Numbered from the stretch's first letter, positions 5,931 through 41,945 are shown. The stretch: 64,000 bases of DNA from Candidatus Kapaibacterium sp. (GCA_017882165.1 JADGPZ010000003.1:878-64877); one strand, 5' to 3'. Program-made: numbers and translations. The notes: a model not told the origin generated them from the letters alone.

Positions 5931-6255
5931 CAATGGATTCTGGGCGATTCATGAAAGAGACCGGCTCAATTGGCGAAATCCGTTCGTTTTGGGATATGAA
6001 AAGAACAAACACACGAAGCCGGATTTTCTTCCGGATGTGAAGATGCGGTGCCGTTAACTTTTCTTACGTTATCGTAAAGATAGCTAACGGTCGAAGCATG
6101 ACGCTCGCTGACTAAAGCGCGGAAGGCTTGCTCGGCAGCGCAGCCTTTCTCATACAACGGGATTGGCACAGAGACTGCTACTGTTCTTCCGGTTCGTCAA
6201 TCGGTTGAGTTGAGACACTCTCCCGCTAATCCGAAAAACGATAATAAAAGGAGCC

Positions 6256-12363: not shown

Positions 12364-12371
12364 TAAATTTG
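12364..12371 (+). promoter_or_regulatory. TAAATTTG: candidate -7 element (TAnnTTTG) upstream of eno
   Basis: Exact motif 26 nt upstream of ATG 12397. Confidence 0.25.
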
Positions 12372-12384
12372 CACTTCACATTAA

Positions 12385-13704
<1,320 letters not shown>

Positions 13705-26563: not shown

Positions 26564-27535
26564 TCAACGTTTTGGACGCAAAGATTCGCTCAGTTGTGTA
26601 ATTGTATCTAATAACTTAATGCAGGCTGGGCGAGCTATATCAAGCGCATTCGACTCATATTGCCAGGCTTTCGGCTGGAATCTTGGTCGACGAACCACAT
26701 AAGGTTTAACGAAAACTTTAATCCCGTCTGGATCATTTTCCATAAAAACATAAAAGGAAATCATTCTTTGAATTTCCTGCTCACCGAAAGGCTTACCGCA
26801 ATCAGGATCTCTGCAAAGATGTGAATCAGTCATATAGCCTAATGGCGGAAAAAACAGTAACGAACCCTCACCATAATCCCCCCAATCCATCCAAGCACCA
26901 GCAGCTATCCCGATTCTTTGCAAGAGGTCATTTACCGACTCTAAAAATCTCTTCTGCAATACAAAATAGATTGGCGTGAAAACGAATTCAGAATCCGGCC
27001 GTGGTTTTGCAACACCGAAATTCAAGGTTTTGGAGGACAAAGCGCCTTGCAAGAAATCAGGCGGTAGAAACTTTTGGTATTCAACATGCCCTCCTCCGCT
27101 CGACCGGCGTCCTCCGAACATAGACTCCCCAGAGGCACCAGTGTCGCTATTGAGATGCCTGTGTCCGATCCAATGACGAAGGCAATGATTTTCAAGAGTT
27201 CGAACAATTGTGTCATGTAAAATCACAAAACTAAAATCGACGGTATCGCAGCTGTTAGAATTACCACTAAACAGCACGGTGGTCGCCGAGTCGGACCACC
27301 AAGTGAGTTTATGGCATTCGTGATCGTCCTCACCGAGGATGGTCACCGAATCAAACAATTGGAAATAAATTGGATACAGTGGATTGAGTGGGTCGCGTAG
27401 GGATGCCAGAAGCAACTTTCCCGGCTTTGCAGGTCCGCAATCCGCTTCTTGAGCGTAGACGCTACTTGAACTCCGCAAAGAAACTTGAACGATAAGTGTA
27501 ATGATCAAAAAGTGGTAGCAAGATTTTCGAGTCAT
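26564..27535 (-). CDS. Secreted hypothetical protein
   Basis: Signal peptide (MTRKSCYHFLIITLIVQVSLRSSSSVYAQ); low-GC (~45%) island; start overlaps the upstream membrane-protein gene (ATGA). Confidence 0.4.
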   Translation of the reverse strand: MTRKSCYHFLIITLIVQVSLRSSSSVYAQEADCGPAKPGKLLLASLRDPLNPLYPIYFQLFDSVTILGEDDHECHKLTWWSDSATTVLFSGNSNSCDTVDFSFVILHDTIVRTLENHCLRHWIGHRHLNSDTGASGESMFGGRRSSGGGHVEYQKFLPPDFLQGALSSKTLNFGVAKPRPDSEFVFTPIYFVLQKRFLESVNDLLQRIGIAAGAWMDWGDYGEGSLLFFPPLGYMTDSHLCRDPDCGKPFGEQEIQRMISFYVFMENDPDGIKVFVKPYVVRRPRFQPKAWQYESNALDIARPACIKLLDTITQLSESLRPKR

Positions 27536-27942
27536 TGAACTTCTCCTCCTGGTTGTAGGTCATTCCCTTGAAGAAAATAAAATGCGAGCATCCCCGTGAT
27601 TAGGAATGAAGAACGTGAACGAATATCCTGGATCATGCCGACAGTCTCGGTCGCGTCACTCATTGTATAAATTAAGAATACGAAGCAACCGGCGTAGATT
27701 ATCGAGACAACAATAGCCACAGTGTCTAAGCCCACACTTACAACCTCTTTGCGCTTATGACGATACTTCTCGAACAAGAAGACGAGCATCGTCGTTAGAG
27801 GTGGAGCAAATGTGTCGAACACTTGGGTCTCCAGTCTCGAAAACTCACCGCCTAATCCGGTGGCATGCACTAACGCAAAGGACAGGCAGAGCGCAAAGCA
27901 ACCTAACCAAAACAGCACCAGAGTAATGTGAATTTTCCTCAT
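27532..27942 (-). CDS. Small integral membrane protein (4 predicted TM)
   Basis: Hydrophobic segments; co-oriented and overlapping with 26564..27535. Confidence 0.4.
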   Translation of the reverse strand: MRKIHITLVLFWLGCFALCLSFALVHATGLGGEFSRLETQVFDTFAPPLTTMLVFLFEKYRHKRKEVVSVGLDTVAIVVSIIYAGCFVFLIYTMSDATETVGMIQDIRSRSSFLITGMLAFYFLQGNDLQPGGEVQ

Positions 27943-28142
27943 TATGACGAGTGAGCAATGACAATTACTTTCATTAGACCTACAAACATACGCAATTCAG
28001 ATGATTTTGTCAAGCTCAATGTCATAACAACCTCCCTGCTCCCCGCTCGCATCCTCCACCTGCGCGCGTTTGAAGGTCGAGCGGCCCAGCGAAGACTCAG
28101 GATGAGAAAGTCTTAAGTGTCAGTCATCAATCGTTTGGATGT

Positions 28143-28799
28143 CTACTCGTCCATCACCTCATCCTCCGATACCTTCGGGTACAAGAGGTCGAAGAAGTTA
28201 CTCCAGAGTGGGCGCAACGATTCATAAGTCTCAAAACCACGTCTGTTTTGGGATTTAAATCGTCTCTCCCATTCTCCACTAGAGTGTATATTGATTAGAC
28301 GCCACATGGTATCGATGGTCATCATTCCAAAATCGATGAAGTCGCGCAGCAATACACTACCGATGGGGGATGTACCAGGGTAAGCGCCTACACGGAAGGC
28401 GCTCTTCCCCTCAAACTCTGTGTGGCGATACTTAGCCAGTGTTTTCGCGTCAGGATGCACAAACTCGGAATAAAAATCAACGACTCGGTTTCTTGACTCT
28501 GTTCTGAATCCATCCAAGAGGATTGATGCGGTCAGCAAGCCCTTAGCATGGTCTCCATCATAGACTGCAATGAGACGGTCATGCACCGCTTTTGGATGTA
28601 GCGTCTTATACCAGCGAGCCCGTTGGGTCTGATCATCTCCTCCTAAGTCTGCAAAAGAGTCAAAGAAATCAAAGTCAACGAGACTTAGCGCGAGCGCCTC
28701 CGCCACTTCTGCGAATACCCTGAAGACGCCCGCCGCTTGGGTATAGTACTTTCGTACTAAAAGTAGCCTTGCCGCACGCAGCTGGTTAAGTAGTTCCAT
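28143..28799 (-). CDS. Hypothetical protein (218 aa), no recognisable family
   Basis: Clean ORF in the low-GC island, downstream of an acidic 97-aa ORF. Confidence 0.4.
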   Translation of the reverse strand: MELLNQLRAARLLLVRKYYTQAAGVFRVFAEVAEALALSLVDFDFFDSFADLGGDDQTQRARWYKTLHPKAVHDRLIAVYDGDHAKGLLTASILLDGFRTESRNRVVDFYSEFVHPDAKTLAKYRHTEFEGKSAFRVGAYPGTSPIGSVLLRDFIDFGMMTIDTMWRLINIHSSGEWERRFKSQNRRGFETYESLRPLWSNFFDLLYPKVSEDEVMDE

Positions 28800-28850
28800 A
28801 AAGTGCAGAGTGAAGACAAGGAAGGCGGGCGACCTTACCGGGCGATGCGA

Positions 28851-29144
28851 TCAAATGAAGTCCTTCTCCTCTCCCATTGAGACTTGCGCGGCGTAGCGGG
28901 ACACTTCCTCAGCTTGAAGTTGAAAACAGAACAAAGTGAAGTCAAGCAGACTTAAGGTGGGTTCTATATCTGCTAAATCCTCATCGCTCGGACAATCGAT
29001 TTTCAGGAAATCTCTGTACCCGACGAAATATGCCAACACCTCTTCGCTGGAGTATTCGAACTTCAGGCACCACTTGGTTGCGCACTCCTCACTCCAAACA
29101 AGCGATAGCCGTTCTCTGAAGAGCTCTTTAGTATGTTCATTCAT
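28851..29144 (-). CDS. Hypothetical small acidic protein (97 aa)
   Basis: ORF in the island, upstream partner of the 218-aa ORF. Overlaps the methyltransferase-remnant ORF end. Confidence 0.35.
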   Translation of the reverse strand: MNEHTKELFRERLSLVWSEECATKWCLKFEYSSEEVLAYFVGYRDFLKIDCPSDEDLADIEPTLSLLDFTLFCFQLQAEEVSRYAAQVSMGEEKDFI

Positions 29145-29382
29145 AGGGGTTGTCAGTCGGAGCCTTTGCCTGGTCGACGTTCACTTTGCGAGTCCTGCCG
29201 AACTCTGAGTAATCGCGCTTCGAATTAAACGGCGGATCGAGATAAATCAGATCGACCGTCTCATCCTTGATGTGCTCTCGCGGAGGATGTGGAGGTTGTC
29301 GCCGAAATAGAGTTTGTTCATTCCTCACATTGAACGCAGTTTCCCGTATGTCATTCCCGCGAACGCGGGAATCCAGGCCCAC
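29137..29382 (-). pseudogene. Remnant of an N4/N6 DNA methyltransferase (N-terminal DPPF motif region only)
   Basis: ORF residues ...REHIKDETVDLIYLDPPFNSKRDYSEF match the N-terminal motif of N6_N4 methylases. The sequence breaks off after ~30 aa. Its upstream part is built from the hairpin repeat at 29351-29375. Confidence 0.5.
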
Positions 29383-29435
29383 CCGAACGTGGTCCTATCC
29401 CGAGAACATGGATCCCCGCGTTCGCGGGGATGACA
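29351..29435. repeat. Inverted-repeat (MITE/REP-like) element: gtcattcccgcgaacgcgggaatcc (29351-29375) and its near reverse complement ggatccccgcgttcgcggggatgaca (29410-29435)
   Basis: The two arms are ~90% reverse-complementary and each is itself a hairpin. One arm recurs at 11955-11980. Confidence 0.55.
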
Positions 29436-29579
29436 TACGGGCGGGATGGTGCCTGTCATCAGGCGTGCAATTTACGAAGAAATTGGCCCGAGGCACGCCG
29501 TCCGTTCAGAAAACTGAAACTCTCTCTGGCGCACACTGTTTACGGTGCGCACGATTAACCCAATTTTTTTCAGAGACTC

Positions 29580-29853: not shown

Positions 29854-29886
29854 CGAAGCAATCTCCTTTGAAAGAGATTGCTTCGC
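29854..29886. terminator. Hairpin gaagcaatctc-ctttgaaag-agattgcttc between convergent genes; possible bidirectional terminator
   Basis: 11-bp perfect stem; weak T-runs on both sides. Confidence 0.3.
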
Positions 29887-29928: not shown

Positions 29929-32037
29929 CTACCGGTTGCCCATGTTATCATCCTCGAACGGACGCCTCGGGCTGCGACGCGCGGGACCTTGTGTAGGCCG
30001 CACGTTGGTCGAATAAACGACTTGTCCCCGGACACCCTTCTGCGGCACTCCGCTTGTCGGTGGCTGGCGATCCTCCCTCGGCGGACCTTGCTCACCGCCC
30101 TGCGGTCGTCCTCTTGACGGTCCACCTTGCGGTCTGCCGCCTCCGCCACCGTATGATCTGCCACCACCGTAGCCTCCTCCTTGCTGGCCGCCGCCATAGC
30201 CACCGCCTTGACCGCCACGCTGCGGCGGACGTCCTCCTCCACGGCCATACCCGCCTCCCGATGGACGCGGCGCGTAGCCACCACCAACCGGACGGTCATA
30301 ATTGCCACCGCCTTCTGGCGGCTTCTGATAGCTGCCGCCTGGCGTCGGACGCTCATAGCTGCCCCCTGAAGGACGCGGAGCATAGCCACCGCCTGCCGGT
30401 CGCCCATAGCCTCCACCACCCGCCGGTCGATCGTAGCCTCCACCTGCTGGACGACCGTAACCTCCCTGACGCGGCGGTCTGCCCTGTCCGGGACCGCCTT
30501 GCGGCTGCCATCCACCTGCGGCTTGGCGTCCGCGCTGAGGCGGGCCGCCTCTGTAGCCACCCTGCCGTTGACCAGATTGCCCACCTTGTCTCGGGCCGCG
30601 CGGTGCTGGCCCGCTCCCCGGTTCGCGCCGGCGAATGCCGCCCGGCCCTGCTTCTCCGATAAATTTCCGCTCCTGTGGTTTCCCACCACGCTTGAACGGT
30701 TTGCGCTCGCCCTTCGGAATCATGACGCGCTTGCCTTTGGCGGCATCGAAACGCTTGCTGTTTCCTTTGCGCTGCGGCTTCTGACGTGGCTTGCGCGCCT
30801 TCCGTGCCGGAGGCACGGTTGCGCCCCATGCTTCTTCTTCCAATCGAGCCTGCTCGCGTACGGGCGCGGCGATGAACTGAAACGTATCCGCGCCGATAAT
30901 CTTGTCGGCGATAGCTTTGCCACTCCAGAATGCGGAGGCGATCGAACTTTGTCCGGCGACGAAATCACCTGCGAGATACAGCGGCGATTTGAACTCGTCC
31001 TGCTTGATCGTATCGACCGTGAATGGCGAGGACGAAAGGAATGCGGCCGGCCAACGCTGGATCTCGCCATAGACCACGTCCGGCAGCGCCACGTCGAGGA
31101 CGTCCTCAAAGACGCGCTCGATTGCGGCGAAGGTCTCCTTGTCGGACTTCAGCACATACTCGCGGCTGATGTCGGCGCCAAGTTGCAGCACAAACGCCAT
31201 CTCATTCTTGCGCTGTCCAAGCTTGCGGCGCTCGCCTTCCTGCGAGAGCCAGAAGACCGGCGCCGTAACATCGTCGGTGAAAAGCGCCGAGAAGTGATCT
31301 TTGAATTTGATCTTCGTCGTTCCAAACATCGCGCCGATCATCGGCTCGTAGTTCACCTCGTTGAGGAGGTCGCAAATGCGCTTGACTTTCTTGTTCTTGT
31401 CTGCATGTGGCAGCAATAACGCAAGCACATAAGGCGCGGGCATTGCGATGACCACGCCATCCGATGGCATGGCCTCGCCGCGCTGATTGCGGAGCGTATA
31501 ACCTTTGTCCTCGAAGACGAGATCGCTGATGCGCGTGTGTGTCCGCACGGGGATGTCCTTGACGAGGGCATCGGCCAGGACCTTGAAGCCGCCATCGAGA
31601 TAATTCCAATTCGGCACCTCGACCTGCTGCGCGGATGCGATGGACCGGCCATCGAAGCGATAGACTGGACCGGGAAATGGCAGTAAGTGTTCGAGCACGC
31701 CGCGCTCTTCGCAGACGGCACGGAGCAACGCGCGGGCGTCGGTCTCGAGTTGGTTCACGCTGAGCGGCGAAAGGTCAAGCCGTTGCGTGCCGGAGTCCAT
31801 TGTCCGGTATCCGACATTGCGTGTGGACGCACGCCCGCCAAGTCCGCGCGACCACTCGAGGACGGTCACGTCCTTGCCGGCGCGGTGGAGAAAATATGCG
31901 GCGGACAGACCGGCAAAGCCTCCGCCAATAACGGTAATCATAATCTGGTGATGCTTCGTGTGTGGCTCGTTTCTTAGGCGAGCTGTGAGTTTCTGAATCA
32001 AAAAAAGGGACCACCCCAAAGCGAGGTGCGGGTCCAC
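29929..32037 (-). CDS. FAD-dependent oxidoreductase (amine-oxidase/Rossmann fold, ~400 aa) fused to a ~280-aa Lys/Arg-rich then Gly/Pro/Arg/Gln-rich repeat tail
   Basis: N-terminus MITVIGGGFAGLSAAYFLHRAGKDVTVLEWSRGLGGRAS (GxGxxG FAD motif). Tail has a KPRQKPQRKGNSKR... basic stretch, then degenerate repeats GGGY(G/D/A)RP(A/S)GG. Confidence 0.65.
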   Translation of the reverse strand: MDPHLALGWSLFLIQKLTARLRNEPHTKHHQIMITVIGGGFAGLSAAYFLHRAGKDVTVLEWSRGLGGRASTRNVGYRTMDSGTQRLDLSPLSVNQLETDARALLRAVCEERGVLEHLLPFPGPVYRFDGRSIASAQQVEVPNWNYLDGGFKVLADALVKDIPVRTHTRISDLVFEDKGYTLRNQRGEAMPSDGVVIAMPAPYVLALLLPHADKNKKVKRICDLLNEVNYEPMIGAMFGTTKIKFKDHFSALFTDDVTAPVFWLSQEGERRKLGQRKNEMAFVLQLGADISREYVLKSDKETFAAIERVFEDVLDVALPDVVYGEIQRWPAAFLSSSPFTVDTIKQDEFKSPLYLAGDFVAGQSSIASAFWSGKAIADKIIGADTFQFIAAPVREQARLEEEAWGATVPPARKARKPRQKPQRKGNSKRFDAAKGKRVMIPKGERKPFKRGGKPQERKFIGEAGPGGIRRREPGSGPAPRGPRQGGQSGQRQGGYRGGPPQRGRQAAGGWQPQGGPGQGRPPRQGGYGRPAGGGYDRPAGGGGYGRPAGGGYAPRPSGGSYERPTPGGSYQKPPEGGGNYDRPVGGGYAPRPSGGGYGRGGGRPPQRGGQGGGYGGGQQGGGYGGGRSYGGGGGRPQGGPSRGRPQGGEQGPPREDRQPPTSGVPQKGVRGQVVYSTNVRPTQGPARRSPRRPFEDDNMGNR
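30117..30450 (-). repeat. Degenerate in-frame tandem repeats (~27-30 nt units, ccaccgcc-rich) encoding GGGYGRPAGG-like units of the oxidoreductase tail
   Basis: Visible periodicity in both protein and DNA. Confidence 0.45.
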
Positions 32038-32334
32038 AAGAACAAATTTATTGCGCGCAGCGCTGAGCCGCCACGACCGTTCCAGTATGTATTGTCAGTT
32101 GAACTTTCTCCCGTGGGAGAAAAAAGAGCACGCGGGAAGCCAATCCGGTTCAGTGAGAGTCTTCCACTTTTTCAAACCAACCAGCCCGCCTAAACCATGC
32201 TCGTGGCGCGACCGGCAAAACTTCCTTCTACAATCCTCTCCGAGAGGACTTTCAACTGTTATGGAATCGCATCCTCCTGTGAGGAGTTCCAGCCGAGTGG
32301 TACGAAGACAGCGAAAGAATGATGAATTCCGAGG

Positions 32335-32526
32335 CTACTTGGCCTCTTCCACGACCACCAGATGCTGGACGGCCCGGATCATGCCTCGAATGGCAGGCGT
32401 GTCGTTGTGAACGGCAACGTAGTGAGGACGTCCGAGACCGAGCGCCTTGATCGTGCGCTTATGCTGCTCGAGCGTGTCGCACGTGGAGCGCGTTTGCCGG
32501 ATGAGAATCTTCTTTGTCGGTGCCAT
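32335..32526 (-). CDS. rpmD: 50S ribosomal protein L30
   Basis: 63 aa; ...TLEQHKRTIKALGLGRP...DTPAIRGMIRAVQHLVVVEE matches L30 by my recollection. Confidence 0.85.
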   Translation of the reverse strand: MAPTKKILIRQTRSTCDTLEQHKRTIKALGLGRPHYVAVHNDTPAIRGMIRAVQHLVVVEEAK

Positions 32527-32576
32527 GATTAACCACCCCCTGCCCCCTCCTTCGAAAGGAGGGGGTAATGATAATA

Positions 32577-33080
32577 TTACCCGTTAAAAACTTTTGTCAG
32601 CGAAACGCCGCGTCGTTCGGAAACCATCGACGCATCGTTCAGCGATTCCAATGCCGCCATCGTCGCTTTCACAAGGTTGTGCGGATTCGATGAACCTTGC
32701 GATTTTGTCAGAATGTCCTGGACGCCTGCGAGTTCGAGTACTGCTCGAACACCACCGCCGGCAATCAGCCCCGTTCCGGGCGAAGCCGGCTTCAGCATAA
32801 CCTTGCCGGCGCCAAATTTGCCTAACGTCATGTGCGGGATCGTACCCCGGCGAAGTGGCACGGAGCGAACATTGCGCTTCGCGTCTTCCGTCGCCTTGGA
32901 CACAGCATCGGCTACTTCGTTCGACTTGCCAAGACCAATACCGACATGCCCCTGACCATCGCCAACGGCGACGATCGCATTGAAGCTAAACCGGCGTCCA
33001 CCTTTGACAACCTTCGCAACGCGATTGACCGCGACGAGCTTGTCCTTGAGATTGAGTTCCGCTGAGCGAATTTTTGACAC
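32577..33080 (-). CDS. rpsE: 30S ribosomal protein S5
   Basis: Position in the spc cluster; [10 protein letters not shown] and GAGLIAGG S5 motifs. Confidence 0.9.
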
Positions 33081-33096
33081 GCTGTATTCCTACAAA

Positions 33097-33453
33097 TTAA
33101 AACACCAGTCCGCCTTCACGCGCGCCATCGGCGAGCGCTTTGACGCGACCATGATAGAGATACCCATTGCGGTCGAACACCGCCGACGTAATGCCCTTTT
33201 CCACTGCGGCCTGCGCGAGGACCTTACCGGTCTGCTTCGCAAGCTCCGTTTTGGGACCCTTGAGTCCCTTGCTGCTTGCGGCCGCAACCGTGAATCCCTG
33301 CGCATCATCAATGAGTTGCGCGTAGACGCCGGTGTTGCTCCGGAAGATGACCAGACGCGGCCGCTCGGCCGTACCCTGGATCTTGTTGTGGATCGTGTGC
33401 CTGCGCCGCTCGCGTCGGCGAGCCTTGGCCTGCAAATGAAGTTTCGATGCCAT
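33097..33453 (-). CDS. rplR: 50S ribosomal protein L18
   Basis: 118 aa, [12 protein letters not shown]...[10 protein letters not shown], cluster position. Confidence 0.9.
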
Positions 33454-33478
33454 TGCTGTTCCTGCTTAGCTTCTTATC

Positions 33479-34018
33479 TTACTTTCCTGCGGTCTTACCG
33501 GCCTTGCGAATGATCTTCTCGCCCGCATACTTCACGCCCTTGCCCTTGTAGGGTTCTGGCGGACGCATCGAGCGGATCTTCGCGGCCACGGCTCCGACCA
33601 ATTGCTTGTCGATACCCGAAACGGTAATCTGAGTCGGCGCGGGAACATCGACCGTGATCTCATCCGGGACCACAAGCACGATGGGGTGCGAATACCCGAG
33701 CGCGAACTGCACCCATTTTCCCTTCTTCTCAGCCTTGTAACCAACGCCGACAAGTTCAAGCTTCTTTTGGAAGCCCGTCGTCACGCCTTCGACCATGTTG
33801 TTCGCAAGCGCGCGCGAAAGCCCATGCAGCGCGCGAACGCGGCGATCCTCGCTCGATCGCGTGAACGTAAGCTGGTCCTGCTCGATATGCGCGGTCACGA
33901 CTTCCGGCAGCCGCTGCGATAGCTGGCCCTTCGGTCCCTTGACCTGAAGCTCGCCTTTGACATCGACCACGGTTACACCTTTCGGGATCGTGATTACTTT
34001 TCTTCCTATTCTCGACAT
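33479..34018 (-). CDS. rplF: 50S ribosomal protein L6
   Basis: MSRIGRKVITIPKGVTV..., 179 aa. Confidence 0.92.
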   Translation of the reverse strand: MSRIGRKVITIPKGVTVVDVKGELQVKGPKGQLSQRLPEVVTAHIEQDQLTFTRSSEDRRVRALHGLSRALANNMVEGVTTGFQKKLELVGVGYKAEKKGKWVQFALGYSHPIVLVVPDEITVDVPAPTQITVSGIDKQLVGAVAAKIRSMRPPEPYKGKGVKYAGEKIIRKAGKTAGK

Positions 34019-34116
34019 AATCTTCTTTTTTCGCTTACGCTAATCCGAAATCGGACGCTGCAGCATTTTTTTAGATTTCATAAATTCTATAGAATCTATA
34101 GAATAATCAAAACCTT

Positions 34117-34506
34117 TTACCAAACGTAACAAAGCACTTCGCCGCCGACATTCGCCTGACGGGCTTGCTTATCGGTCATGAGGCCTTTCGGCGTCGAAAG
34201 GATCGCGATCCCAAGCCCGGAGAGCACACGCGGTGTCTCCGTTGCTTTCGTATACCGTCGAAGTCCCGGCGTCGAAATACGCTTGAGACCCATGATCGCC
34301 GGCTGCCCGTTCGTGTACTTCAGCGTCACGCGGAGCATCCCCTGTTTCGTATCCTCGATCCGCTCGATCGAGTCGATATAGCCTTGCTCGCGCATGATCT
34401 CGGCCATCGCAAATTTCAGGTTCGAAGCCGGCACATCGACATACTTATGCCGCGCGCCCAGCGCGTTGCGCACTCGGGTCAAAAAATCGCCAATCGTATC
34501 CATCAA
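34117..34506 (-). CDS. rpsH: 30S ribosomal protein S8
   Basis: [15 protein letters not shown]..., 129 aa. Confidence 0.92.
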
Positions 34507-34551
34507 GAATTCAAAATAATCAAAATGTCCAGCTCCGCTCGTGCGACGCTA

Positions 34552-34737
34552 TTACCAGCTCGACTTCCGTACGCCGGGTATCTTTCCCTCTAATGCCAGC
34601 TCCCGAAAACAGAGCCGACAGATCCCGAACTTCCGGTAGTACGCGCGTGACCGCCCACAGCGGTTGCATCGGTTGTGCACGCGTGTCGCAAACTTCGGTT
34701 TGCGCTTCGCTTTGACTCTCAGGGCTAATCGTGCCAT
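34552..34737 (-). CDS. rpsN: 30S ribosomal protein S14 type Z (zinc-binding)
   Basis: 61 aa, [25 protein letters not shown] zinc-ribbon form. Confidence 0.9.
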
Positions 34738-34782
34738 CTCTGAAGTGCTAAAGTGCTATTCTTAGTACGAAACTGCTGGTGT

Positions 34783-35505
34783 TTAGGCCGTTTCCGTTTC
34801 GCGCTTGCGGAACGGCAGACCAAACGCTTTCAAAAGTTCGAGCGCTTCCTCGTCCGTGCGGGCGCTGGTCGCGAACGTAATGTCCATTCCCGTGATCTTC
34901 GAAACCTTATCGACATCGATTTCCGGGAAGATAATCTGCTCGCGAATGCCGAGCGTGTAGTTGCCACGGCCGTCGAACGACTTATCCGGAATACCGCGGA
35001 AATCGCGGATACGCGGGATGGCCGTCGTCATGAGCCGATCCAAAAACTCGTACATGCGCGCCCGGCGCAGTGTGACGCGGCATCCAATCGCCTGGTTCTC
35101 GCGAAGCTTGAAGTTCGAAATCGACTTTTTCGACTTGGTGATCGCGGGCTTCTGACCTGTGACGGCTTCAAGATCGCGGACGGCTGCCTCGAGCAACTTC
35201 GGATCGCTCGCAGCGGCGCCGACGCCGATATTGATTGCGATCTTATCGATGCGTGGTACTTGATTCACATTTTCGTAACCGAATCGCTTCATCAGCGACG
35301 GTACGACATCGCTGCGATATTTCAGCAGTAACCGTGCGGGCGGAATGGGGCGATCCTTCGCCTGGAACGCCTCGGCATGTGGTTCGCCGCGGCCACCAGA
35401 CTTTTTGTCGCCCTTCCCCTTACCCTCGCCCTTCGGCGTCTTGGGTTTTCCTTCACCGGCTGCCGGAGCGGCCTTCGGTTGTTTCTTTGCTTTCTCTTCT
35501 GCCAT
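34783..35505 (-). CDS. rplE: 50S ribosomal protein L5 with a ~55-aa Lys/Gly-rich N-terminal extension
   Basis: Core [39 protein letters not shown] at 35505 with no internal ATG before the core, so the extension appears real. Confidence 0.88.
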
Positions 35506-35552
35506 TTTTTCTTGTCCTAAGCAACGATATTGGCCGTTGCTCCTAAGCTTAG

Positions 35553-35882
35553 TTATGCGAGCACGTCCCCGGAGCGCTTCGAGAAGCGCTCGAACCGGAC
35601 CTTGCCCTCTGTGCCGATGAGTTCGCGCTTGCCGATGCGCGTCCGAAGATTCGTCTTCGGATCGACGAGCATCACGTTCGATGCATCGATCGGAGCTTCG
35701 CGGACGGTGATGCCGCCCTTCTGGTTCTTCTGCGACGGACGCTCGTGCTTGTGCTGCGTGTTCACACCCTCGACGAGCACTTTGTTCGTCTCGGGGTAAA
35801 CCCGAAGTACCTTACCATGCTTGCCACGGCTCTTGCCCGTGATCACTTCGACGATATCGTTCTTCTTGACTCTCATGTTCAA
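35553..35882 (-). CDS. rplX: 50S ribosomal protein L24
   Basis: [25 protein letters not shown] (KOW motif). Confidence 0.9.
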
Positions 35883-36247
35883 ATTACCTCCGGCGCCAGC
35901 GAAACGATTTTCATATATTGCCGCTCGCGAAGCTCGCGGGCGACCGGTCCGAAGATGCGCGTGCCACGCGGCTCGCCCTGGGCGTTGAGCAATACGACCG
36001 CGTTCTCGTCGAACCGGATGAAACTGCCGTCTTTCCGGCCGTACTCCTTTTTCGTCCGCACGATGACCGCCTTCGAAACTTCGCCCTTCTTCACCTGCCC
36101 ATTCGGAATCGCCGACTTGACGCTGACGACGACCACGTCGCCCAGACCGGCATAGCGCCGGTCATGCCCGCCCAGAATGCGGATGCAACGCACCTTCTTG
36201 GCGCCCGAATTATCGGCTACGATTAAGTTCGTTTCTTCCTGTACCAT
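35879..36247 (-). CDS. rplN: 50S ribosomal protein L14
   Basis: [23 protein letters not shown], 122 aa. Confidence 0.95.
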
Positions 36248-36285
36248 AACTACTCCAGTATCTCTCCCAAACAGAGAGGGATGTG

Positions 36286-36576
36286 CTACTTCGCTCGTTC
36301 CAAAACTTCTACAACGCGCCAGCGCTTCGTCTTCGAGAGCGGGCGAGTCTCCATGATGCGGACCGTGTCACCGGTCTTGGCATCGCTATTCTCGTCGTGC
36401 GCGACAAATGTCGTCGTCTTCTTAAAGTACTTCTTGTACAGCGGATGCGGCACCTGACGCACAAGGCTCACGATGACGGTCTTCTGCATTTTATCGCTGA
36501 CGACCTTCCCGACGCGCTCCTTGCGATGTCCGCGCACCACTGCGCTCACTTGTTCGCTCGTTTGATTCTCTGGCAT
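36286..36576 (-). CDS. rpsQ: 30S ribosomal protein S17
   Basis: Cluster position; [14 protein letters not shown]...HDEN S17 pattern. Confidence 0.88.
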
Positions 36577-36584
36577 GATAAAAA

Positions 36585-36791
36585 TTATTTCGCCAATGGC
36601 TTGCGATCCCGGAGCGACGTTTCCATCCGCGCGATGTCGCGGCGAAGCGTGCGGAACTGCGCGTGATTGTCAAGCTGTCCGATCGTCTTCTGGAATGTAA
36701 GCGAGGTCATTCGCGAGCGTGTATCCGCGATTTGCTTCAACACCTCTGCTTCGCTCAAATTCGCAAGCTCTGCGTATTTCGTACCCTTCAT
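36585..36791 (-). CDS. rpmC: 50S ribosomal protein L29
   Basis: 68 aa, [20 protein letters not shown].... Confidence 0.85.
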
Positions 36792-36801
36792 TGCTTCCCC
36801 T

Positions 36802-37221
36802 TTACTCTACGTAATCCGGCCGAACGACGACCTTTGTCTTCACCGGAAGCTTGTGCCCCGCAAGTCGAAATGCTTCCTCGGCAAGCTCTTTTGTAATGCC
36901 GCCGATCTCGAACATGATGCGCCCCGGCCGGATGACCGCGACCCAAAATTCAGGAGATCCCTTGCCAGATCCCATACGGGTCTCTGCGGGCTTCTTCGTC
37001 ACCGGCTTGTCCGGAAAGATCCGAATCCAAATTTTTCCGTCGCGCTTCATCGTACGCGAAAGCGTGACGCGAACAGCTTCGATCTGGCGGCTCGTGATCC
37101 AGCCTGACTCCAACGCCTTGAGGCCGAAGGAGCCGAATGCGAACTGCGTACCGCGAGTCTCGTTACCCGAGACTTTGCCGCGCATCGCTTTGCGATATTT
37201 TACTCTCTTTGGAAGAAGCAT
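36802..37221 (-). CDS. rplP: 50S ribosomal protein L16
   Basis: [16 protein letters not shown]..., 139 aa. Confidence 0.95.
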
Positions 37222-37245
37222 CTTCTTCTATTGCTACTCTTCTAA

Positions 37246-38157
37246 TTATTCAGCCGCTGTTTGTGTCCGGGTCCGAAGCGTCGGCTTTGGGCCATCGCTT
37301 CCCGATGCGCTACGCCCGGCTCCATCGTGTGATCCGCCGCGAGCACCGCCGCGCGTCCTTGGACCCCGATCTCCCGTGCCGCGATCGCCTCCACCTTCGC
37401 CCGAATCATCGCCGCGTCCACGTCCACCGCGACGGCGGCGTTCGCCACCGGCTGCGGAAACGATCGGACGTTTGTCCTTCTGCTCGACACCGTTTACGGC
37501 GGTTTCGGCGGCGATCTGGAGTGGCGTCTGACCGATGATGTCACCGTGGCAAACCCAAACCTTCACGCCAATCGAACCATACACCGTATGCGCTGTCGAA
37601 CGTGCAAAATCTATGTCGGCGCGGAGCGTGTGCAGCGGGATACGTCCCTCTTTATACTGCTCGCTTCTCGCGATTTCCGCACCACCAAGTCGTCCGCCGC
37701 ACATGACGCGAATGCCCTCGGCACCGGCGCGCATCGCAGCCGAAATGGAGCCCTTCATGGCGCGGCGGAAGGAAATGCGCCCCTCAAGTTGCTGCGCGAT
37801 CTGATCGGCAACAAGTTGAGCATCCGTCTCCGGCCGTTTCACTTCGTTGATAAGGATCTTCACTTCCTTACCACCCGTAATATTCTTTAGCTCCTCTTCA
37901 AGCTGCGCGATCTCTTTGCCGCTCTTGCCGATCACGACACCCGGTCGTGAGGTATGGATGGTCAGCACGACGCGCTTCGTCGTGCGGTCGAGCGTAAGCT
38001 TCGAAATTCCGGCGCGTTTCAGACGGTTCTTTACGTAAGATCGAATGAGGTTATCCTCTTCGAGCTTCTGCGCGAAATTCTTGTCGTCGTACCAGCGCGC
38101 GTCCCACGGTCTGGTTACCGCGACTCTGAAGCCAATGGGGTGTGTTTTTTGTCCCAA
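37246..38157 (-). CDS. rpsC: 30S ribosomal protein S3 with a Gly/Arg/Asp-rich C-terminal extension (~70 aa)
   Basis: MGQKTHPIGFRV..., KH domain; tail GGERRRRGGRGRGDDSGEGGGDRGTGDRGPR.... Confidence 0.92.
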   Translation of the reverse strand: MGQKTHPIGFRVAVTRPWDARWYDDKNFAQKLEEDNLIRSYVKNRLKRAGISKLTLDRTTKRVVLTIHTSRPGVVIGKSGKEIAQLEEELKNITGGKEVKILINEVKRPETDAQLVADQIAQQLEGRISFRRAMKGSISAAMRAGAEGIRVMCGGRLGGAEIARSEQYKEGRIPLHTLRADIDFARSTAHTVYGSIGVKVWVCHGDIIGQTPLQIAAETAVNGVEQKDKRPIVSAAGGERRRRGGRGRGDDSGEGGGDRGTGDRGPRTRGGARGGSHDGAGRSASGSDGPKPTLRTRTQTAAE

Positions 38158-38175
38158 ATTATCTTCCTATCGTCT

Positions 38176-38628
38176 TTAACTTGCCGTAGTTGGTGTTGCT
38201 GCCGCCGGAGTCGCAATGGCTTTCGGCGTCGCAGCTCCTTCTTTCTTACTTCCTCGCACAGGCTTGCGCGATGCCCGCAGCCCAAGTTCATCGCTGACGA
38301 CGATCCTGAGATGATTCGAGCGCTTTCGCACCCGGAAGGCACGACCCATCGGCGCCGGAAGCACACGCTTGAGCATCGCTCCGCCATCGGCGGAACACTC
38401 GCGCACATACAATTCCTCGACATCGAACCGCGAATTCTCGGGGTCCATCTGAAAATTCGAGATCGCGCTGCGAAGCGTCTTCTCGGCCACGACCGATGCG
38501 TGGTTCGGCGTGAAGTGGAGGATCGAAAGAGCCTCCGGCACCCGCTTGCCTCGGATCTGATCGAGCACGATCCGCATCTTCCGCGGTGAGCTCTGAATGT
38601 TACGCTTAATTGCGTGCGCTTGCTTCAT
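38176..38628 (-). CDS. rplV: 50S ribosomal protein L22 (with a C-terminal extension)
   Basis: MKQAHAIKRNIQSSPRKMRIV..., cluster position. Confidence 0.9.
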   Translation of the reverse strand: MKQAHAIKRNIQSSPRKMRIVLDQIRGKRVPEALSILHFTPNHASVVAEKTLRSAISNFQMDPENSRFDVEELYVRECSADGGAMLKRVLPAPMGRAFRVRKRSNHLRIVVSDELGLRASRKPVRGSKKEGAATPKAIATPAAATPTTAS

Positions 38629-38633
38629 TATAC

Positions 38634-38915
38634 TTATTTCGTCGCTACTTCGGTCTTCGTTCCTGAGTGTCCACGGAAGGTCCGCGTTGGCGAAAACTCG
38701 CCGAGCTTGTGTCCCACCATGTTCTCCGTCACATAGACCGGAATGAACTTGTTACCATTGTGGACCGTGAAGGTGTGACCGACAAAATCCGGCGAGATCG
38801 TTGAGGATCGCGACCAGGTCTTCACCACTTTCTTCTGACGAGCAGCATTGAGCGTCTCCACTTTTCGGAGCAGCTTCTCGTCAATGAACGGTCCTTTTTT
38901 CAGCGAACGTGACAT
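38634..38915 (-). CDS. rpsS: 30S ribosomal protein S19
   Basis: [16 protein letters not shown]...[12 protein letters not shown]. Confidence 0.95.
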
Positions 38916-38921
38916 ACTTTT

Positions 38922-39758
38922 TTATTTCGTGCGGCGCTTAACGATGTACTTATTCGATGCGTTCTTACGCTTCCGGGTCTTGAGGCCCTTTGAAAGCTGT
39001 CCCCACGGCGACTTCGGATGTTTGCGTCCTCCGCCCGACTTCGACTTACCTTCGCCACCACCCATCGGGTGATCGACCGGGTTCATCGCCATACCGCGCG
39101 TCTGCGGACGAATACCGAGCCAGCGTGAACGTCCGGCCTTGCCCCAGCTAATATTGAAGAAGTCAGAGTTTCCGACCTGTCCGATCGTCGCGAAGCATTC
39201 AAGGCGAATCTTGCGCGTCTCGCCGGATGGGAGACGAATCGTTGCGAACTCACCCTCCTTGGCCATCACCTGGCACGCATTGCCGGCGGAGCGAGCGATC
39301 TGCCCGCCGCGGCCCGCGCGCAGCTCCACATTGTGGACGAACGTGCCGAGCGGCATATTCTTCAGCGGCAAAGTATTGCCAACGTTAATTTCGCTTTCCG
39401 CTCCGGACGTGATCGTCGCACCGACATCCAGTCCACCGGGAGCGAGGATGTAACGCTTCTCGCCATCCGCATACTGGATGAGTGCGATGCGGCAGCTCCG
39501 GTTCGGATCGTATTCGATCGCGGTGACCTTGCCGGGCACCATGATTTTGTCCCGCTTGAAGTCGATTACGCGGTACATCCGCTTGTGGCCACCGCCACGA
39601 TGCCGTGACGTGATGCGTCCCGTGTTGCCGCGGCCACCCGACTTGCGGAGTGGCTCGAGCAGCGCCTTCTCCGGCGTGGTCTTCGTGACCTCGTCGAATG
39701 TCGAGATCGAATAGTACCGCGTCGCCGGCGTTCTTGGTTTTAGATTCCTAATAGCCAT
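38922..39758 (-). CDS. rplB: 50S ribosomal protein L2
   Basis: 278 aa, [14 protein letters not shown]...GGGHK. Confidence 0.96.
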
Positions 39759-39763
39759 TGCTC

Positions 39764-40081
39764 TTACAACGCTCCTTTATCTTTCGCCTCGACCGGCGCG
39801 AAAATATCGATCGTCTGACCGGCTTCAAGGTGTACGATTGCCTTCTTGTAGCCCTGCTTAATGCCACGCCGCACGCCCTTGCGCGTATTCTGCGTCTTGT
39901 GCTTCGGCTTGCGCCACGAGGTCTGAACGCTCTTGACCGCGACACCGAACTTGCGCGCAACCGCCTGAGCGATCTCGATCTTGTTCGTATCCGGCAGAAC
40001 TTCGAAGTGATAGATCCCCTTCTCGGCCTGCAAGGTCGCTTTCTCGGTCAGCAGCGGACGTTTTAAAACTTCTCGTACCAT
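39764..40081 (-). CDS. rplW: 50S ribosomal protein L23
   Basis: [15 protein letters not shown]... Confidence 0.9.
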
Positions 40082-40101
40082 GATTCTTCCCTGATGTCCC
40101 G

Positions 40102-40776
40102 TTACGCCGGTATAGAAATGTGCTCGACTTCCGGCAATTCGTTCGCCATGCCGTTAAACGTATTTTCGATCATCTTCACGGCGGATTCCTCGGCGATCAC
40201 GGCGCGCGATTTCCAAATCTCGTACATCGAAACCTTATCGGCCGCGAGCACCGTCAGGGTCGGGATGTTCCGTCCGCTGAGAAACAGCGTGCCGTTGTCA
40301 CCAGCCGTAAGCAAGAGCGCCTGCTTCTTATCGAGTTGCAGTGCGTTAAGCACCTCTTGCACCTGCTTCGTGCGCGCACCGCTAAAATTCAAATCTTCAA
40401 CAACGACGAACGCGTTCTTCTGAACTTTTTCCGAAAGAGCGCTCTTCCGCGCGAGCTGCTTCACCTTGCGTGAGAGCTTCTGCGTGTACTTATGCGGCTT
40501 CGGTCCGAACATCGTGCCACCACCCGGATGCAGCGGGCTCTTGATGTCACCCTGGCGCGCCCGGCCGGTGCCCTTTTGGCGAAACAGCTTCCTCGTCGAG
40601 CCGGCAACTTCGCTGCGACCCTTGGTCTTGGCCGTTCCCTGGCGCTGCGCCGCGAGATAGGCATTAATCGAGAGCCACATCGCATGCTCGTGCGGCTCGA
40701 TCGCGAAAATGTCGTCCGGCAGGTCGATCATTCGACCCGTGCCCGTACCGCTCTTGCTTAAAACTTCGAGTTCCAT
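40102..40776 (-). CDS. rplD: 50S ribosomal protein L4
   Basis: 224 aa, ...QKGTGRARQGDIKSPLHPGGG.... Confidence 0.92.
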   Translation of the reverse strand: MELEVLSKSGTGTGRMIDLPDDIFAIEPHEHAMWLSINAYLAAQRQGTAKTKGRSEVAGSTRKLFRQKGTGRARQGDIKSPLHPGGGTMFGPKPHKYTQKLSRKVKQLARKSALSEKVQKNAFVVVEDLNFSGARTKQVQEVLNALQLDKKQALLLTAGDNGTLFLSGRNIPTLTVLAADKVSMYEIWKSRAVIAEESAVKMIENTFNGMANELPEVEHISIPA

Positions 40777-40825
40777 GTGTTTTCGATAGATTCTATGGAT
40801 TCGATAGATTCTATAAAATCTACTC

Positions 40826-41461
40826 TTACGCTTTTACTATCTCGACCACCTGATTCTTCGCACCGGCAAACGAGCCGCTGACTAAAATCAGATTTTGATC
40901 GGCCACGATCCGCACGACGCGAAGATTCCGAGTGGTAATCCTCTTGCCGCCCATGCGACCACCCATGCGCTGCCCCTTGAACACGCGCGAAGGATAGCTC
41001 GAAGAGCCGATCGAACCGGGATGGCGCTGGCGATCCGACTGACCGTGCGTGGACTGTCCAATACCACCAAAATGGTGGCGCTTGACGACGCCCTGAAATC
41101 CGCGGCCTTTCGATGTCCCGACGACGTGTACGACGTCGCCTTCGGCGAAAATATCCGGCACCTTAATCTCGGCTCCCAGCGCGAACGAAGCGATCTTCTC
41201 ATCCGAAAAGGACCGCACTTCCTTCACGTAACGCTTCGCCGATGTTCCCGCCTTGTCGAAGTGCCCCTTCTCGGGCTTGTTCAACTTGCGCTCCGCCATG
41301 TCCTCAAAAGCAAGCTGCACGGCGGCGTAGCCGTCGCGCGCCTTCGTCTTGACTTGCGTGACGTAGCACGGGCCGACTTCCAAAACGGTCACGGGCACAT
41401 ATTGCCCCTGATCGTCGAAGACCCCCGTCATGCCAACTTTTTTTCCAAATAGTGCGCTCAT
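40826..41461 (-). CDS. rplC: 50S ribosomal protein L3
   Basis: MSALFGKKVGMTGVFDD... Confidence 0.95.
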   Translation of the reverse strand: MSALFGKKVGMTGVFDDQGQYVPVTVLEVGPCYVTQVKTKARDGYAAVQLAFEDMAERKLNKPEKGHFDKAGTSAKRYVKEVRSFSDEKIASFALGAEIKVPDIFAEGDVVHVVGTSKGRGFQGVVKRHHFGGIGQSTHGQSDRQRHPGSIGSSSYPSRVFKGQRMGGRMGGKRITTRNLRVVRIVADQNLILVSGSFAGAKNQVVEIVKA

Positions 41462-41566
41462 TGTGTCAATTGCGAATTACGAATTACGAATCACGAATGC
41501 GCCATGTGGCTTCTGTCCGAATTACGACCCATTCGTAATCCGTCATTCGCAATCAATAATTAAGCG

Positions 41567-41869
41567 TCACACCTTGATCTCTACTTCTACTCCCGCCGGC
41601 AACTCGAGCTTCATCAGCGAATCGACGGTGCGGCTGTTCGAATTCAAAATGTCGATGAGCCGCTTGTGGGCGCGGATCTCGAACTGCTCGCGGCTCTTCT
41701 TATCCACGTGCGGCGAGCGGTTGACCGTATAGATCGACTTCTTCGTCGGAAGAGGGATCGGTCCAGAGACCACGCAGCCTGTCGGCTTGACGGTCCGGAT
41801 GATCTTCTCCGCGCTCTTGTCGATCAGGTTATGATCGTACGACTTTAATTTGATTCGAATCTTCTGCAT
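41567..41869 (-). CDS. rpsJ: 30S ribosomal protein S10
   Basis: [24 protein letters not shown]..., 100 aa. Confidence 0.96.
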
Positions 41870-41898
41870 TATTCTTTTTGATGCCCTCTCTCGTCCGG

Positions 41899-41937
41899 GG
41901 AGGGAAAAAGAAAGCGCGCATCCAAAAAGATGCGCGC
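41899..41937 (-). terminator. Intrinsic terminator / attenuator between tuf and rpsJ
   Basis: Minus-strand hairpin gcgcgcatc-ttttt-ggatgcgcgc followed by tttctttttccc. Confidence 0.5.
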
Positions 41938-41945
41938 TTCAAGAA

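Follow-up and report, generated by a model that had tools for sequence, protein, structure and literature searches.

Bacterial proteins seldom have long disordered regions, and those that have been studied well belong to RNA-handling proteins such as RNase E, the DEAD-box helicases, Hfq, Rho and SSB. In the latter, an oligonucleotide-binding (OB) fold is followed by a Gly/Gln/Pro-rich disordered linker and an acidic DDDIPF tip, whose terminal Phe binds to pockets of partner proteins. Renalases are flavoenzymes whose characterised members oxidise 2- and 6-dihydro-NAD(P) with O2. The gene described here is encoded on the minus strand of a 64,000-nucleotide stretch of DNA from Candidatus Kapaibacterium sp. 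(GCA_017882165.1 JADGPZ010000003.1:878-64877). This whole stretch is referred to as the window, and positions are counted from its first letter. The product of the gene joins a renalase-like oxidoreductase dependent on flavin adenine dinucleotide (FAD) to a polycationic C-terminal tail of about 290 residues that is predicted to be disordered. Neither a frameshift nor an assembly artefact accounts for this fusion, which is genuine and has been conserved throughout the Kapabacteria lineage.

The enzyme part shares its fold, a full-length alignment and the FAD and core motifs with the renalases of Pseudomonas (4zcc, 4zcd, 5krq and 3kkj) and human (3qj4) and with COG3380, but identity is only ~23-30% and the clade adds a conserved 30-residue extension and a disordered tail of 230-400 residues. 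With SSB, the protein has in common the succession of a folded domain, a G/Q/P-rich disordered linker and an acidic tip starting with DD[DN]I; the SSB tip, however, ends in Pro-Phe, whereas the tip found here ends in GNR or continues as PDEDE, and the present linker is strongly basic. Another related architecture is that of Hfq. Acinetobacter Hfq displays 12 GGFGGQ repeats and an acidic C-terminal tip; the number of repeats and the tip both tune the binding of RNA and influence fitness (PMC11617691). In E. coli Hfq, the acidic tip is a competitor of RNA and autoregulates RNA binding (PMC5606850). The likeness to the Hfq C-terminal domain lies in disordered Gly-Gly-aromatic repeats ending in a conserved acidic tip, both of which were recovered here from the predicted disorder, the aromatic spacing and the tip itself. 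The Hfq tail is nevertheless only ~100 residues long, is not polycationic and belongs to an Sm-fold RNA chaperone, whereas the present tail has ~290 residues with a net charge of +41 and a tip built around an N-x-G-N core, and is borne by a redox enzyme. A flavoenzyme is therefore found where Hfq and SSB have a nucleic-acid-binding folded domain. In plants, GRP7 binds long RNAs through its Gly/Tyr/Arg-rich domain, which also drives phase separation (PMC11239674). Domains of this composition bind RNA and promote condensation (PMC11239674, PMC12502372), and bacterial examples have been reviewed (PMC9312465). GRP7, the RGG-YGG regions of the FUS/hnRNP type and the tails of bacterial DEAD-box helicases resemble our tail in their G/R/Y/Q composition, spaced aromatics and predicted disorder; the latter differs in lacking tri-RGG, in having almost no di-RGG, in its richness in Pro (RP occurs 13 times) and in its attachment to a metabolic enzyme fold. 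The combination of a renalase and such a tail was not found in the literature searched, which is an incomplete collection.

Homologues were retrieved by searching 5.8 billion clustered proteins. This search yielded 42 homologues with 45-83% identity, of which the 35 full-length ones (633-789 residues) were aligned, the remainder being partial or miscalled. Where names are given, they refer to Kapabacteria, Bacteroidota or 'predicted NAD/FAD-dependent oxidoreductase'. The initial annotation of the window had proposed an open reading frame (ORF) at 29929..32037 encoding an FAD oxidase fused to a repetitive tail. This minus-strand ORF is indeed present, with 702 codons counted from the GTG at 32037, but its start has to be moved. 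Since all 35 full-length homologues, as well as an identical database protein (P0001, 670 residues), begin with MIT[IV][IV]GGG, the true start is almost certainly the ATG at 31941, for a product of 670 residues. The 32-residue stretch between GTG 32037 and ATG 31941 is not conserved among the homologues, and a hairpin followed by a T-run (32012-32028), detected in a scan for terminator-like structures, falls within this putative N-terminal extension. The features of the gene, all on the minus strand except for the tandem repeat, are as follows.

29929..31941, minus strand: whole gene, renalase-like FAD oxidoreductase with a predicted disordered C-terminal tail; 670 codons and a stop at 29929-29931.
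30895..31941, minus strand: renalase-like FAD-binding catalytic domain, residues 1-349, supported by Pfam, phmmer, AlphaFold, Foldseek and invariant residues.
30808..30894, minus strand: family-specific conserved extension, residues 350-378, G.D...FI..P.R.Q......W.A.VPP, from the alignment of 35 homologues.
30628..30807, minus strand: Lys/Arg-rich leader of the tail, residues 379-438, including the non-conserved Met407, from the Lys distribution and the alignment.
30034..30627, minus strand: Gly/Arg/Pro/Gln/Tyr repeat region, residues 439-636, with degenerate GGGY(G/D/E)RP(A/S) units, from composition, motif counts and model confidence.
30386..30465, no strand: only detectable DNA tandem repeat of the tail, periods 27 and 24 with ~2 copies each, from Tandem Repeats Finder.
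29995..30033, minus strand: conserved island V(R/K)G(Q/S)VVYSTNVRP, residues 637-649, from the closer half of the family.
29932..29979, minus strand: C-terminal tip RRSPRRPFEDDNMGNR, residues 655-670, basic RRPRRP followed by acidic [DE]D.N.GN[RQ], from the homologues.

The N-terminal part of the protein matches the Pfam families Amino_oxidase (74.5 bits for a cut-off of 19.8) and NAD_binding_8, both above their gathering cut-offs. Among solved structures, the best sequence match is bacterial renalase 4zcc/3kkj, with a phmmer E-value of 4.2e-15 over residues 2-345 of the query and 5-320 of the chain (4zcc_A). An AlphaFold model was built from the 35-sequence family alignment. Its predicted local distance difference test (pLDDT) score is ~90 across residues 1-380, and the conserved, confidently modelled part ends at about residue 380, the score declining from 88 to 62 along the extension at residues 350-378. 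When this model was compared to the PDB using Foldseek, Pseudomonas renalase structures ranked at the top (4zcc, E-value 1e-26, template modelling (TM) score 0.84 normalised to the target), followed by human renalase 3qj4 (TM 0.78-0.81). The larger protoporphyrinogen, polyamine and monoamine oxidases and LSD2 reached TM scores of just 0.3-0.6, and the modelled domain has the compact two-subdomain fold of renalases, unlike that of these larger amine oxidases of the monoamine oxidase, protoporphyrinogen oxidase and LSD types. The FAD-binding motifs GxGxxG (G6/G8/G11), E29, SRGxGGR (residues 31-37, with G35-G36-R37) and GD (D326) are invariant in the 35 homologues, and the other motifs shared with renalases, D.G.Q, W112, PAP and RW, are retained. 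The extension is not covered by the renalase alignment, which ends before it; its residues D352, P360, W372, P377 and P378 are likewise invariant.

A total of 1.84 billion representatives were searched exhaustively with HMMER. The tailed clade is made of a handful of 50%-identity clusters, whose full-length members all possess a C-terminal region of ~250-350 residues. The next matches drop to 29-30% identity, measure 320-380 residues and are devoid of a tail, so that the clade (at least 45% identity within it) is sharply separated from its next relatives. Nearly all of the best 150 matches outside the clade are 300-390 residues long with nothing past the matched domain, and some of these tail-less relatives are named 'renalase' or 'NAD(P)/FAD-dependent oxidoreductase [Longimonas]' at their source. 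Because the full-length sequence match, the fold, the FAD motifs and the nearest named relatives agree, the enzyme domain is called renalase-like and is assigned, by sequence and modelled fold, to a divergent branch of the renalase clade/COG3380. It is so by sequence and fold and not by architecture: a renalase is a single domain of ~320-380 residues, whereas this protein has 670, including the 30-residue extension and the 290-residue tail. The 'standard Rossmann FAD oxidase' of the initial annotation is consequently correct as to an FAD oxidoreductase, in view of the Pfam matches and motifs, but is too broad. By analogy with the characterised renalases, the substrate is most likely a small compound of dihydropyridine or amine type, oxidised with O2.

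The tail-coding DNA has a G+C content of 68% and several of its frames are open; ORF length is therefore weak evidence of coding, and conservation was tested instead. The genomes were scanned using one genome per GTDB species, and the gene was found in 24 species-level metagenome-assembled genomes (MAGs). Their labels are nearly all Kapaibacterium, Ignavibacteriota/Ignavibacteriae or Bacteroidota/Bacteroidetes, and the single MAG labelled 'Alphaproteobacteria' is taken to be a binning or labelling error. In every complete, unbroken MAG gene (21/21), the frame continues from the enzyme domain into the tail, and it reaches the conserved C-terminal motif in most of them. The tails of these genes span 230-398 residues (20 measured), with 20-38% Gly and a net charge of +27 to +44. 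The tail is never missing, be it in the 21 intact MAG genes or in the 35 full-length homologues, and a check of homologues suggested in the initial annotation thus favours the fusion that it had described. Three apparent exceptions were rejected as natural tail-less variants. One protein of 400 residues (P0021) owes its length to a single in-frame stop in a nanopore-derived contig, downstream of which the complete tail, tip included, can be read in an unchanged frame; another (P0018) ends in an Ala/Val-rich tail whose composition matches an off-frame reading of the same repeats; a third gene (L029) is frameshifted early. The assemblies in which the gene is broken, L034 and L029, are both derived from long reads, and L034 (3001-5455) displays a single in-frame stop between domain and tail, with the whole tail intact behind it. 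The breaks of L034 and L029 are probably sequencing errors, stop read-through or recent pseudogenisation being the other possibilities.

Selection on the tail was measured against the closest relative (L006, 83% identity). Synonymous sites are saturated between the two genes, with a proportion of synonymous differences (pS) of 0.69-0.75; uncorrected proportions were used because such saturation defeats distance-corrected dN/dS. The proportion of nonsynonymous differences (pN) amounts to 0.036 for the domain as opposed to 0.163 for the tail, where pN/pS is 0.22, and the 52 gap columns of the alignment all lie within the tail and are all in frame. Given this ratio and these in-frame indels, the tail is translated in this frame and is under purifying selection, less tightly than the enzyme.

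Residues 381-670 of the window protein are composed of 30% G, 14% R, 14% P, 9% Q, 5% K and 5% Y. The residues V, I, L, M, F, W and C make up 6% of this tail versus 32% of the enzyme domain. It includes 9 GGY, 13 RP and 4 RGG, and pLDDT is below 50 for residues 410-670, in agreement with the disorder that the initial annotation had proposed to check by prediction. The degenerate GGGY repeats noted there are present, as GGGY(G/D/E)RP(A/S) units. Their periodicity in the DNA is slight, as Tandem Repeats Finder gives just two short overlapping arrays covering ~80 bp; the repeats are mainly visible in the protein. The lysines are concentrated in the first 60 residues of the tail (12 out of 14), a pattern encountered throughout the family (11/11 and 13/13, for example), and Arg predominates over Lys after this leader. 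The repeat unit varies by lineage (GGYGRP, QGRSYGQG, GGGGYRDRNQ, GGGYQQ and others) while the overall anatomy is constant. The aromatic residues are evenly spaced, with a coefficient of variation of 0.2-0.7 versus ~0.9 in shuffled sequences, and in 17 of the 21 proteins at most 5 shuffles in 1000 were as even; this regularity is partly a trivial result of tandem repetition. A VVYST island precedes the tip in the closer half of the family, and a related ..V.VYQT.. island is placed in the middle of the tail in the distant half. The tip is present in essentially all complete homologues, with 3-6 acidic residues among the last 15. In the closer half it reads RRPRRP-x-[DE]D[DES]N[IMV]GN[RQ] and occupies the very C-terminus; the window protein ends with RRPFEDDNMGNR, for a family consensus of RRPRRP.DDNIGNR. 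It thereby belongs to a provisional set of DDNIGNR-tipped proteins, defined by a C-terminal [DE]D[DENS]N.GN[RQS] that follows an R/G-rich disordered region.

The metagenome collection was scanned once for DNA encoding DDNIGN[RS] followed by a stop-like codon, and 61 loci were obtained. Many of these are located in tiny ORFs, and meaning can be attached only to the matches located precisely at the C-terminus of a real protein. The latter form the following families.

This renalase-like clade: 3 loci, identified by sequence.
R3H proteins: 4 loci, Pfam R3H; one is named 'spoIIIJ-associated protein' and one that was tested matches NCBIfam Jag/EloR below the cut-off.
RRM protein: 1 locus, Pfam RRM_1, named 'RNA-binding protein [Phycisphaerae bacterium]'.
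CsrA: 3 loci with two variants, Pfam CsrA.
SpoVG: 1 locus, Pfam SpoVG.
PHP_C proteins, without assigned function: 3 loci, Pfam PHP_C on two of them.

The carriers of the tip in the R3H, RRM, CsrA, SpoVG and PHP_C set are located as follows.

L040, 6491-7228, plus strand.
L065, 951-1892, minus strand.
L081, 1309-2175, minus strand.
L089, 3886-4692, minus strand.
L068, 2-508, plus strand.
L045, 964-1209, plus strand.
L047, 6353-6643, minus strand.
L082.
L083, 1278-1607, plus strand.
L035, 1110-2096, minus strand.
L061, 3942-5255, plus strand.
L079.

These proteins end with a C-terminal heptapeptide identical to that of the renalase-like clade and most of them display an R/G(/Y)-rich stretch ahead of it, together with internal copies of the motif (DDVGNR, DDIGNR, EDAGNR, E[VI]NGNV). 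They differ in their folded domains, which bind RNA (no function being assigned to PHP_C), in originating from other phyla and, for several of them, in these additional internal copies. The core of the tip-bearing CsrA has 75.5% DNA identity to E. coli csrA, and the E. coli protein is devoid of the extension that carries the tip. Ten of these tip-bearing sequences were looked up in the public collection; each exists there as a called protein, in a cluster whose other members retain the tip. The PHP_C carriers gave no PDB sequence match and only a weak metallohydrolase match, and their interpretation as RNases was not adopted for these reasons. The motif string was not found in the literature searched, and a six-frame scan of the window and of the available loci of Kapabacteria, a small sample, retrieved the tip in the renalase-like gene only. 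On these grounds, DDNIGN[RS] is a candidate short linear motif, so far undescribed, of RNA-associated proteins. Because the search pattern forced the identity of the heptapeptide, the shared tip is retained as a strong lead, short of a proven shared function.

Our preferred reading, to which we assign a probability of roughly one half, is that of a cytoplasmic renalase-type oxidase tethered to RNA or to a ribonucleoprotein (RNP) hub by its disordered tail. A single cytoplasmic polypeptide would comprise the renalase-clade FAD oxidase and a polycationic tail of ~290 residues, organised as a Lys-rich leader, Gly-Gly-Tyr/Arg 'sticker-spacer' repeats and a basic-then-acidic tip, RRPRRP-x-DDN-x-GNR. 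The tail would serve as the tether, its net charge of +30 to +45 and its Arg/Tyr stickers binding polyanionic RNA in the form of ribosomes, mRNA or an RNP condensate. The tip could either dock on a partner common to the tip-bearing RNA-binding proteins or mimic a nucleic acid and fold back onto the basic tail in an autoinhibitory manner, comparable to the acidic tip of Hfq. The enzyme would in this manner be concentrated on or near RNA. We infer RNA binding and a partner from the kind of sequence found in the tail and from the occurrence of its tip on RNA-binding proteins, which lend indirect support to the RNA-related interpretation given in the initial annotation; the canonical RGG box that its label evoked is absent.

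A number of results weigh against this reading. An RGG/RG box is defined by at least two or three RGG or RG units lying 0-4 residues apart. By this definition, the window protein includes no tri-RGG, no di-RGG, no tri-RG and a single di-RG. In the family, tri-RGG does not occur and di-RGG is found in 5 out of 21 proteins, while GGY, with 2-25 copies and at least 9 in 16/21, is the most constant unit. A canonical RGG box was rejected on the basis of these counts and 'GGY/Arg-rich disordered tail' is the accurate label; in the former RGG/GY designation, GGY and Arg hold throughout the family and RGG is used loosely. In the distant half of the family, about one half of the members, the tip reads DN[DE]N[RFI]GN[RQ] followed by xP(D/E)3 and is not located at the very C-terminus. 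The AlphaFold model does not dock the tip onto the enzyme domain. The total of 61 loci is near chance by a rough, non-computed estimate, and the presence of the tip across families relies on a single pattern scan in which the pattern itself imposed the DDNIGN[RS] identity. A tip-only profile, too short for the purpose, returned nothing at E-values up to 10 from the protein database. A tail-only search of the protein database returned three composition-driven matches (a DNA polymerase III tau fragment, an S4/pseudouridine synthase protein and one unnamed protein) and not the renalase-like family itself. No conserved gene neighbourhood was found among the loci examined, which therefore provide no hint of a pathway, and we know of no reason for a renalase-type reaction to take place on RNA. 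Lastly, DNA, polyphosphate and anionic membranes are equally plausible ligands of a polycationic tail.

This last point leads to a somewhat unlikely alternative, in which the tail is a module that binds polyanions in general or associates with itself, without specificity for RNA, acting at the nucleoid, at polyphosphate granules, at the inner face of the membrane or by homotypic condensation, and the tip is a solubilising acidic cap. A charge band of +27 to +45 that is kept while the repeat sequence is not, and evenly spaced Tyr stickers, would be expected of such a module, and the data fit RNA and other polyanions alike; a generic acidic cap, on the other hand, has no need for an NIGN-type sequence that recurs on R3H, RRM, CsrA and SpoVG proteins. 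A tail with no targeting role at all, be it a repeat tolerated while expanding by replication slippage in G+C-rich DNA, an entropic bristle or a solubility tag, is improbable. Lineage-specific repeat units, a length varying between 230 and 400 residues and frequent indels are in its favour, but the tail is never lost from the intact genes and full-length homologues, its charge band is narrow, the Lys-to-Arg order, the VVYST island and the tip are conserved, and pN/pS is 0.22. Least probable of all, by a wide measure, are two separate products, with the tail initiated at the internal MIPKGERKPF as the initial annotation had envisaged, or an artefact of assembly or frameshift. An in-frame ATG does exist at residue 407, and P0021, with its stop at 400, and P0018 look split. 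Met407 is nevertheless found in this genome alone, the closest relative reading VPFAKGARKPF at this place; the stop of P0021 is a single codon of a nanopore contig with an intact tail behind it, the tail of P0018 appears to be read off frame, and the frame is kept from domain to tip in all the intact genes. The separate protein was dropped accordingly, and the fusion stands.

Two further proposals also connect the protein with RNA. In the broader one, held as rather unlikely, the R/G/Y-rich region and the [DE]D.N.GN[RQS] tip would together form an undescribed cross-phylum module targeting its carriers to one RNA-associated hub. The candidate hubs would be the ribosome, an RNase or degradosome-type assembly or a condensate, and the carriers would be Jag/KhpB-like, RRM, CsrA and SpoVG proteins along with the Kapabacteria flavoenzyme; the latter would then be the first RNA-stationed redox or metabolite-repair enzyme of bacteria, possibly with an RNA-linked nicotinamide or nucleotide as substrate. 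The other, a rival of the tether and quite improbable in our opinion, has the flavoenzyme itself acting on an RNA-linked substrate, as an RNA-modifying, RNA-repair or NAD-cap-directed oxidase for which the tail is the recruiting arm, instead of as a renalase for small molecules. The fall in identity from at least 45% to 29-30% and the 30-residue extension proper to the clade would fit a change of substrate, NAD(P)-type nucleotides are bound by the characterised renalases according to the titles of PDB entries 4zcc, 4zcd and 5krq, and the tail module is common to RNA-binding proteins. Against this purely inferential proposal, the renalase motifs SRGxGGR, D.G.Q, PAP, RW and GD are kept, which suggests a similar chemistry, and no neighbours devoted to tRNA or rRNA modification were encountered at the loci examined. 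To our knowledge, no RNA-modifying enzyme of renalase fold has been described.

Whatever its ligand, a polycationic tail of 230-400 residues, predicted to be disordered, is kept by a whole bacterial class on a metabolic flavoenzyme, and its rules are clear: a set charge band, a Lys-then-Arg order, an even spacing of Tyr and a conserved tip. If the tail does target the enzyme to RNA or to a condensate, this would be a natural case of localisation of a bacterial enzyme by a disordered region. The shared DDNIGNR tip offers a concrete handle toward a partner that several RNA-binding families of different phyla may have in common, and this cross-phylum tip is the part that could prove to be new biology. 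Annotations such as 'FAD-dependent oxidoreductase' can conceal architectures of this kind.

A secreted product or one sorted by the type IX secretion system was rejected, as the Rossmann motif begins at residue 5, leaving no room for a signal peptide, and the renalase-like protein has no Pfam match to Por_Secre_tail, a domain displayed by other proteins of the window. The immediate surroundings of the gene include the following features.

32335..32526, minus strand: rpmD (ribosomal protein L30), last gene of the ribosomal cluster and upstream neighbour; an ORF whose counterpart in the closest relative matches Pfam Ribosomal_L30.
31942..32334, minus strand: spacer of 393 bp between rpmD and the gene, conserved with the closest relative only.
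32043-32050, in this spacer: match to a Bacteroidota-type -7 box, TAAATTTG, from a motif search.
29854..29885, minus strand: hairpin, likely the transcript end, 44-75 nt past the stop; inverted repeat I2 with a 15-bp stem, 93% complementary, and a 2-nt loop.

The renalase-like gene is located 394 bp downstream of rpmD, at the end of an S10/spc cluster running from EF-Tu through S10 to L30. The adjacency to ribosomal genes reported initially is accordingly real but has no functional weight: this position is common to the window and its closest relative only, four other homologues having unrelated neighbours, and a functional link to the cluster was rejected for this reason. In the five loci examined, long spacers flank the gene, which appears to be monocistronic; the upstream ones measure 390-1170 bp in the homologues. 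The alignment of the five upstream spacers displays conservation just between the window and the closest relative, and no Rfam match was obtained in the upstream region at E-values up to 1; a conserved leader or riboswitch was therefore dropped. A scan of the spacer for sigma-70 promoters gave nothing useful. A TAnnTTTG box lies ~100 nt upstream of the ATG, but since the window contains this motif about as often as chance predicts (16 occurrences for 15.2 expected), a promoter of the gene's own at this place is a suggestion only. The TAAATTTG box is also present at 12364-12371, 26 nt before the start of enolase (12397-13704, plus strand), and in a distant homologue locus (L002) the gene located upstream of the tailed one, in divergent orientation, is enolase (6222-7544); this coincidence between the two loci is probably fortuitous.

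The ribosomal cluster (32335-43154, minus strand) ends at rpmD, and the usual continuation into L15 and SecY does not follow here or in the closest relative; the renalase-like gene occupies the position of this missing continuation. Within the cluster, ribosomal protein S3 (37246-38157, minus strand, 303 residues) has an Arg/Gly/Asp-rich C-terminal extension of ~80 residues (GGERRRRGGRGRGDDSGEGGGDRG...), as does its orthologue in the closest relative. The longest ORF for L5 (34783-35505, minus strand) starts with a Lys/Gly/Pro-rich N-terminal extension of ~50 residues, the shorter call in the closest relative (192 residues) rendering this start uncertain. As S3 and possibly L5 carry such extensions, the lineage uses basic disordered extensions on RNA-bound proteins, which we count, along with Hfq and GRP7, among the precedents for the proposed tether.

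On the other side of the gene, an 81-residue ORF fragment (29137-29441) resembles the N-terminus of a DNA methyltransferase (DLIYLDPPFNSKRDY) without a Pfam match. It is overlapped by a 33-nt inverted repeat, the arms of which (29343-29375 and 29409-29441) are 94% complementary and each hold a GC-rich palindrome (TCCCGCGAACGCGGGA), similar to repetitive extragenic palindromes (REP) or miniature inverted-repeat transposable elements (MITE). Four consecutive ORFs of 323, 136, 218 and 97 residues follow (26564-29144, minus strand), with no Pfam match and a G+C content of 43-51% versus 55-69% in the ribosomal cluster and the tailed gene; they may constitute an inserted island directly downstream of the latter. 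Two large membrane proteins of 814 and 804 residues are encoded in tandem at 43629-48484 on the plus strand, with a YfhO match at their C-terminal ends only.

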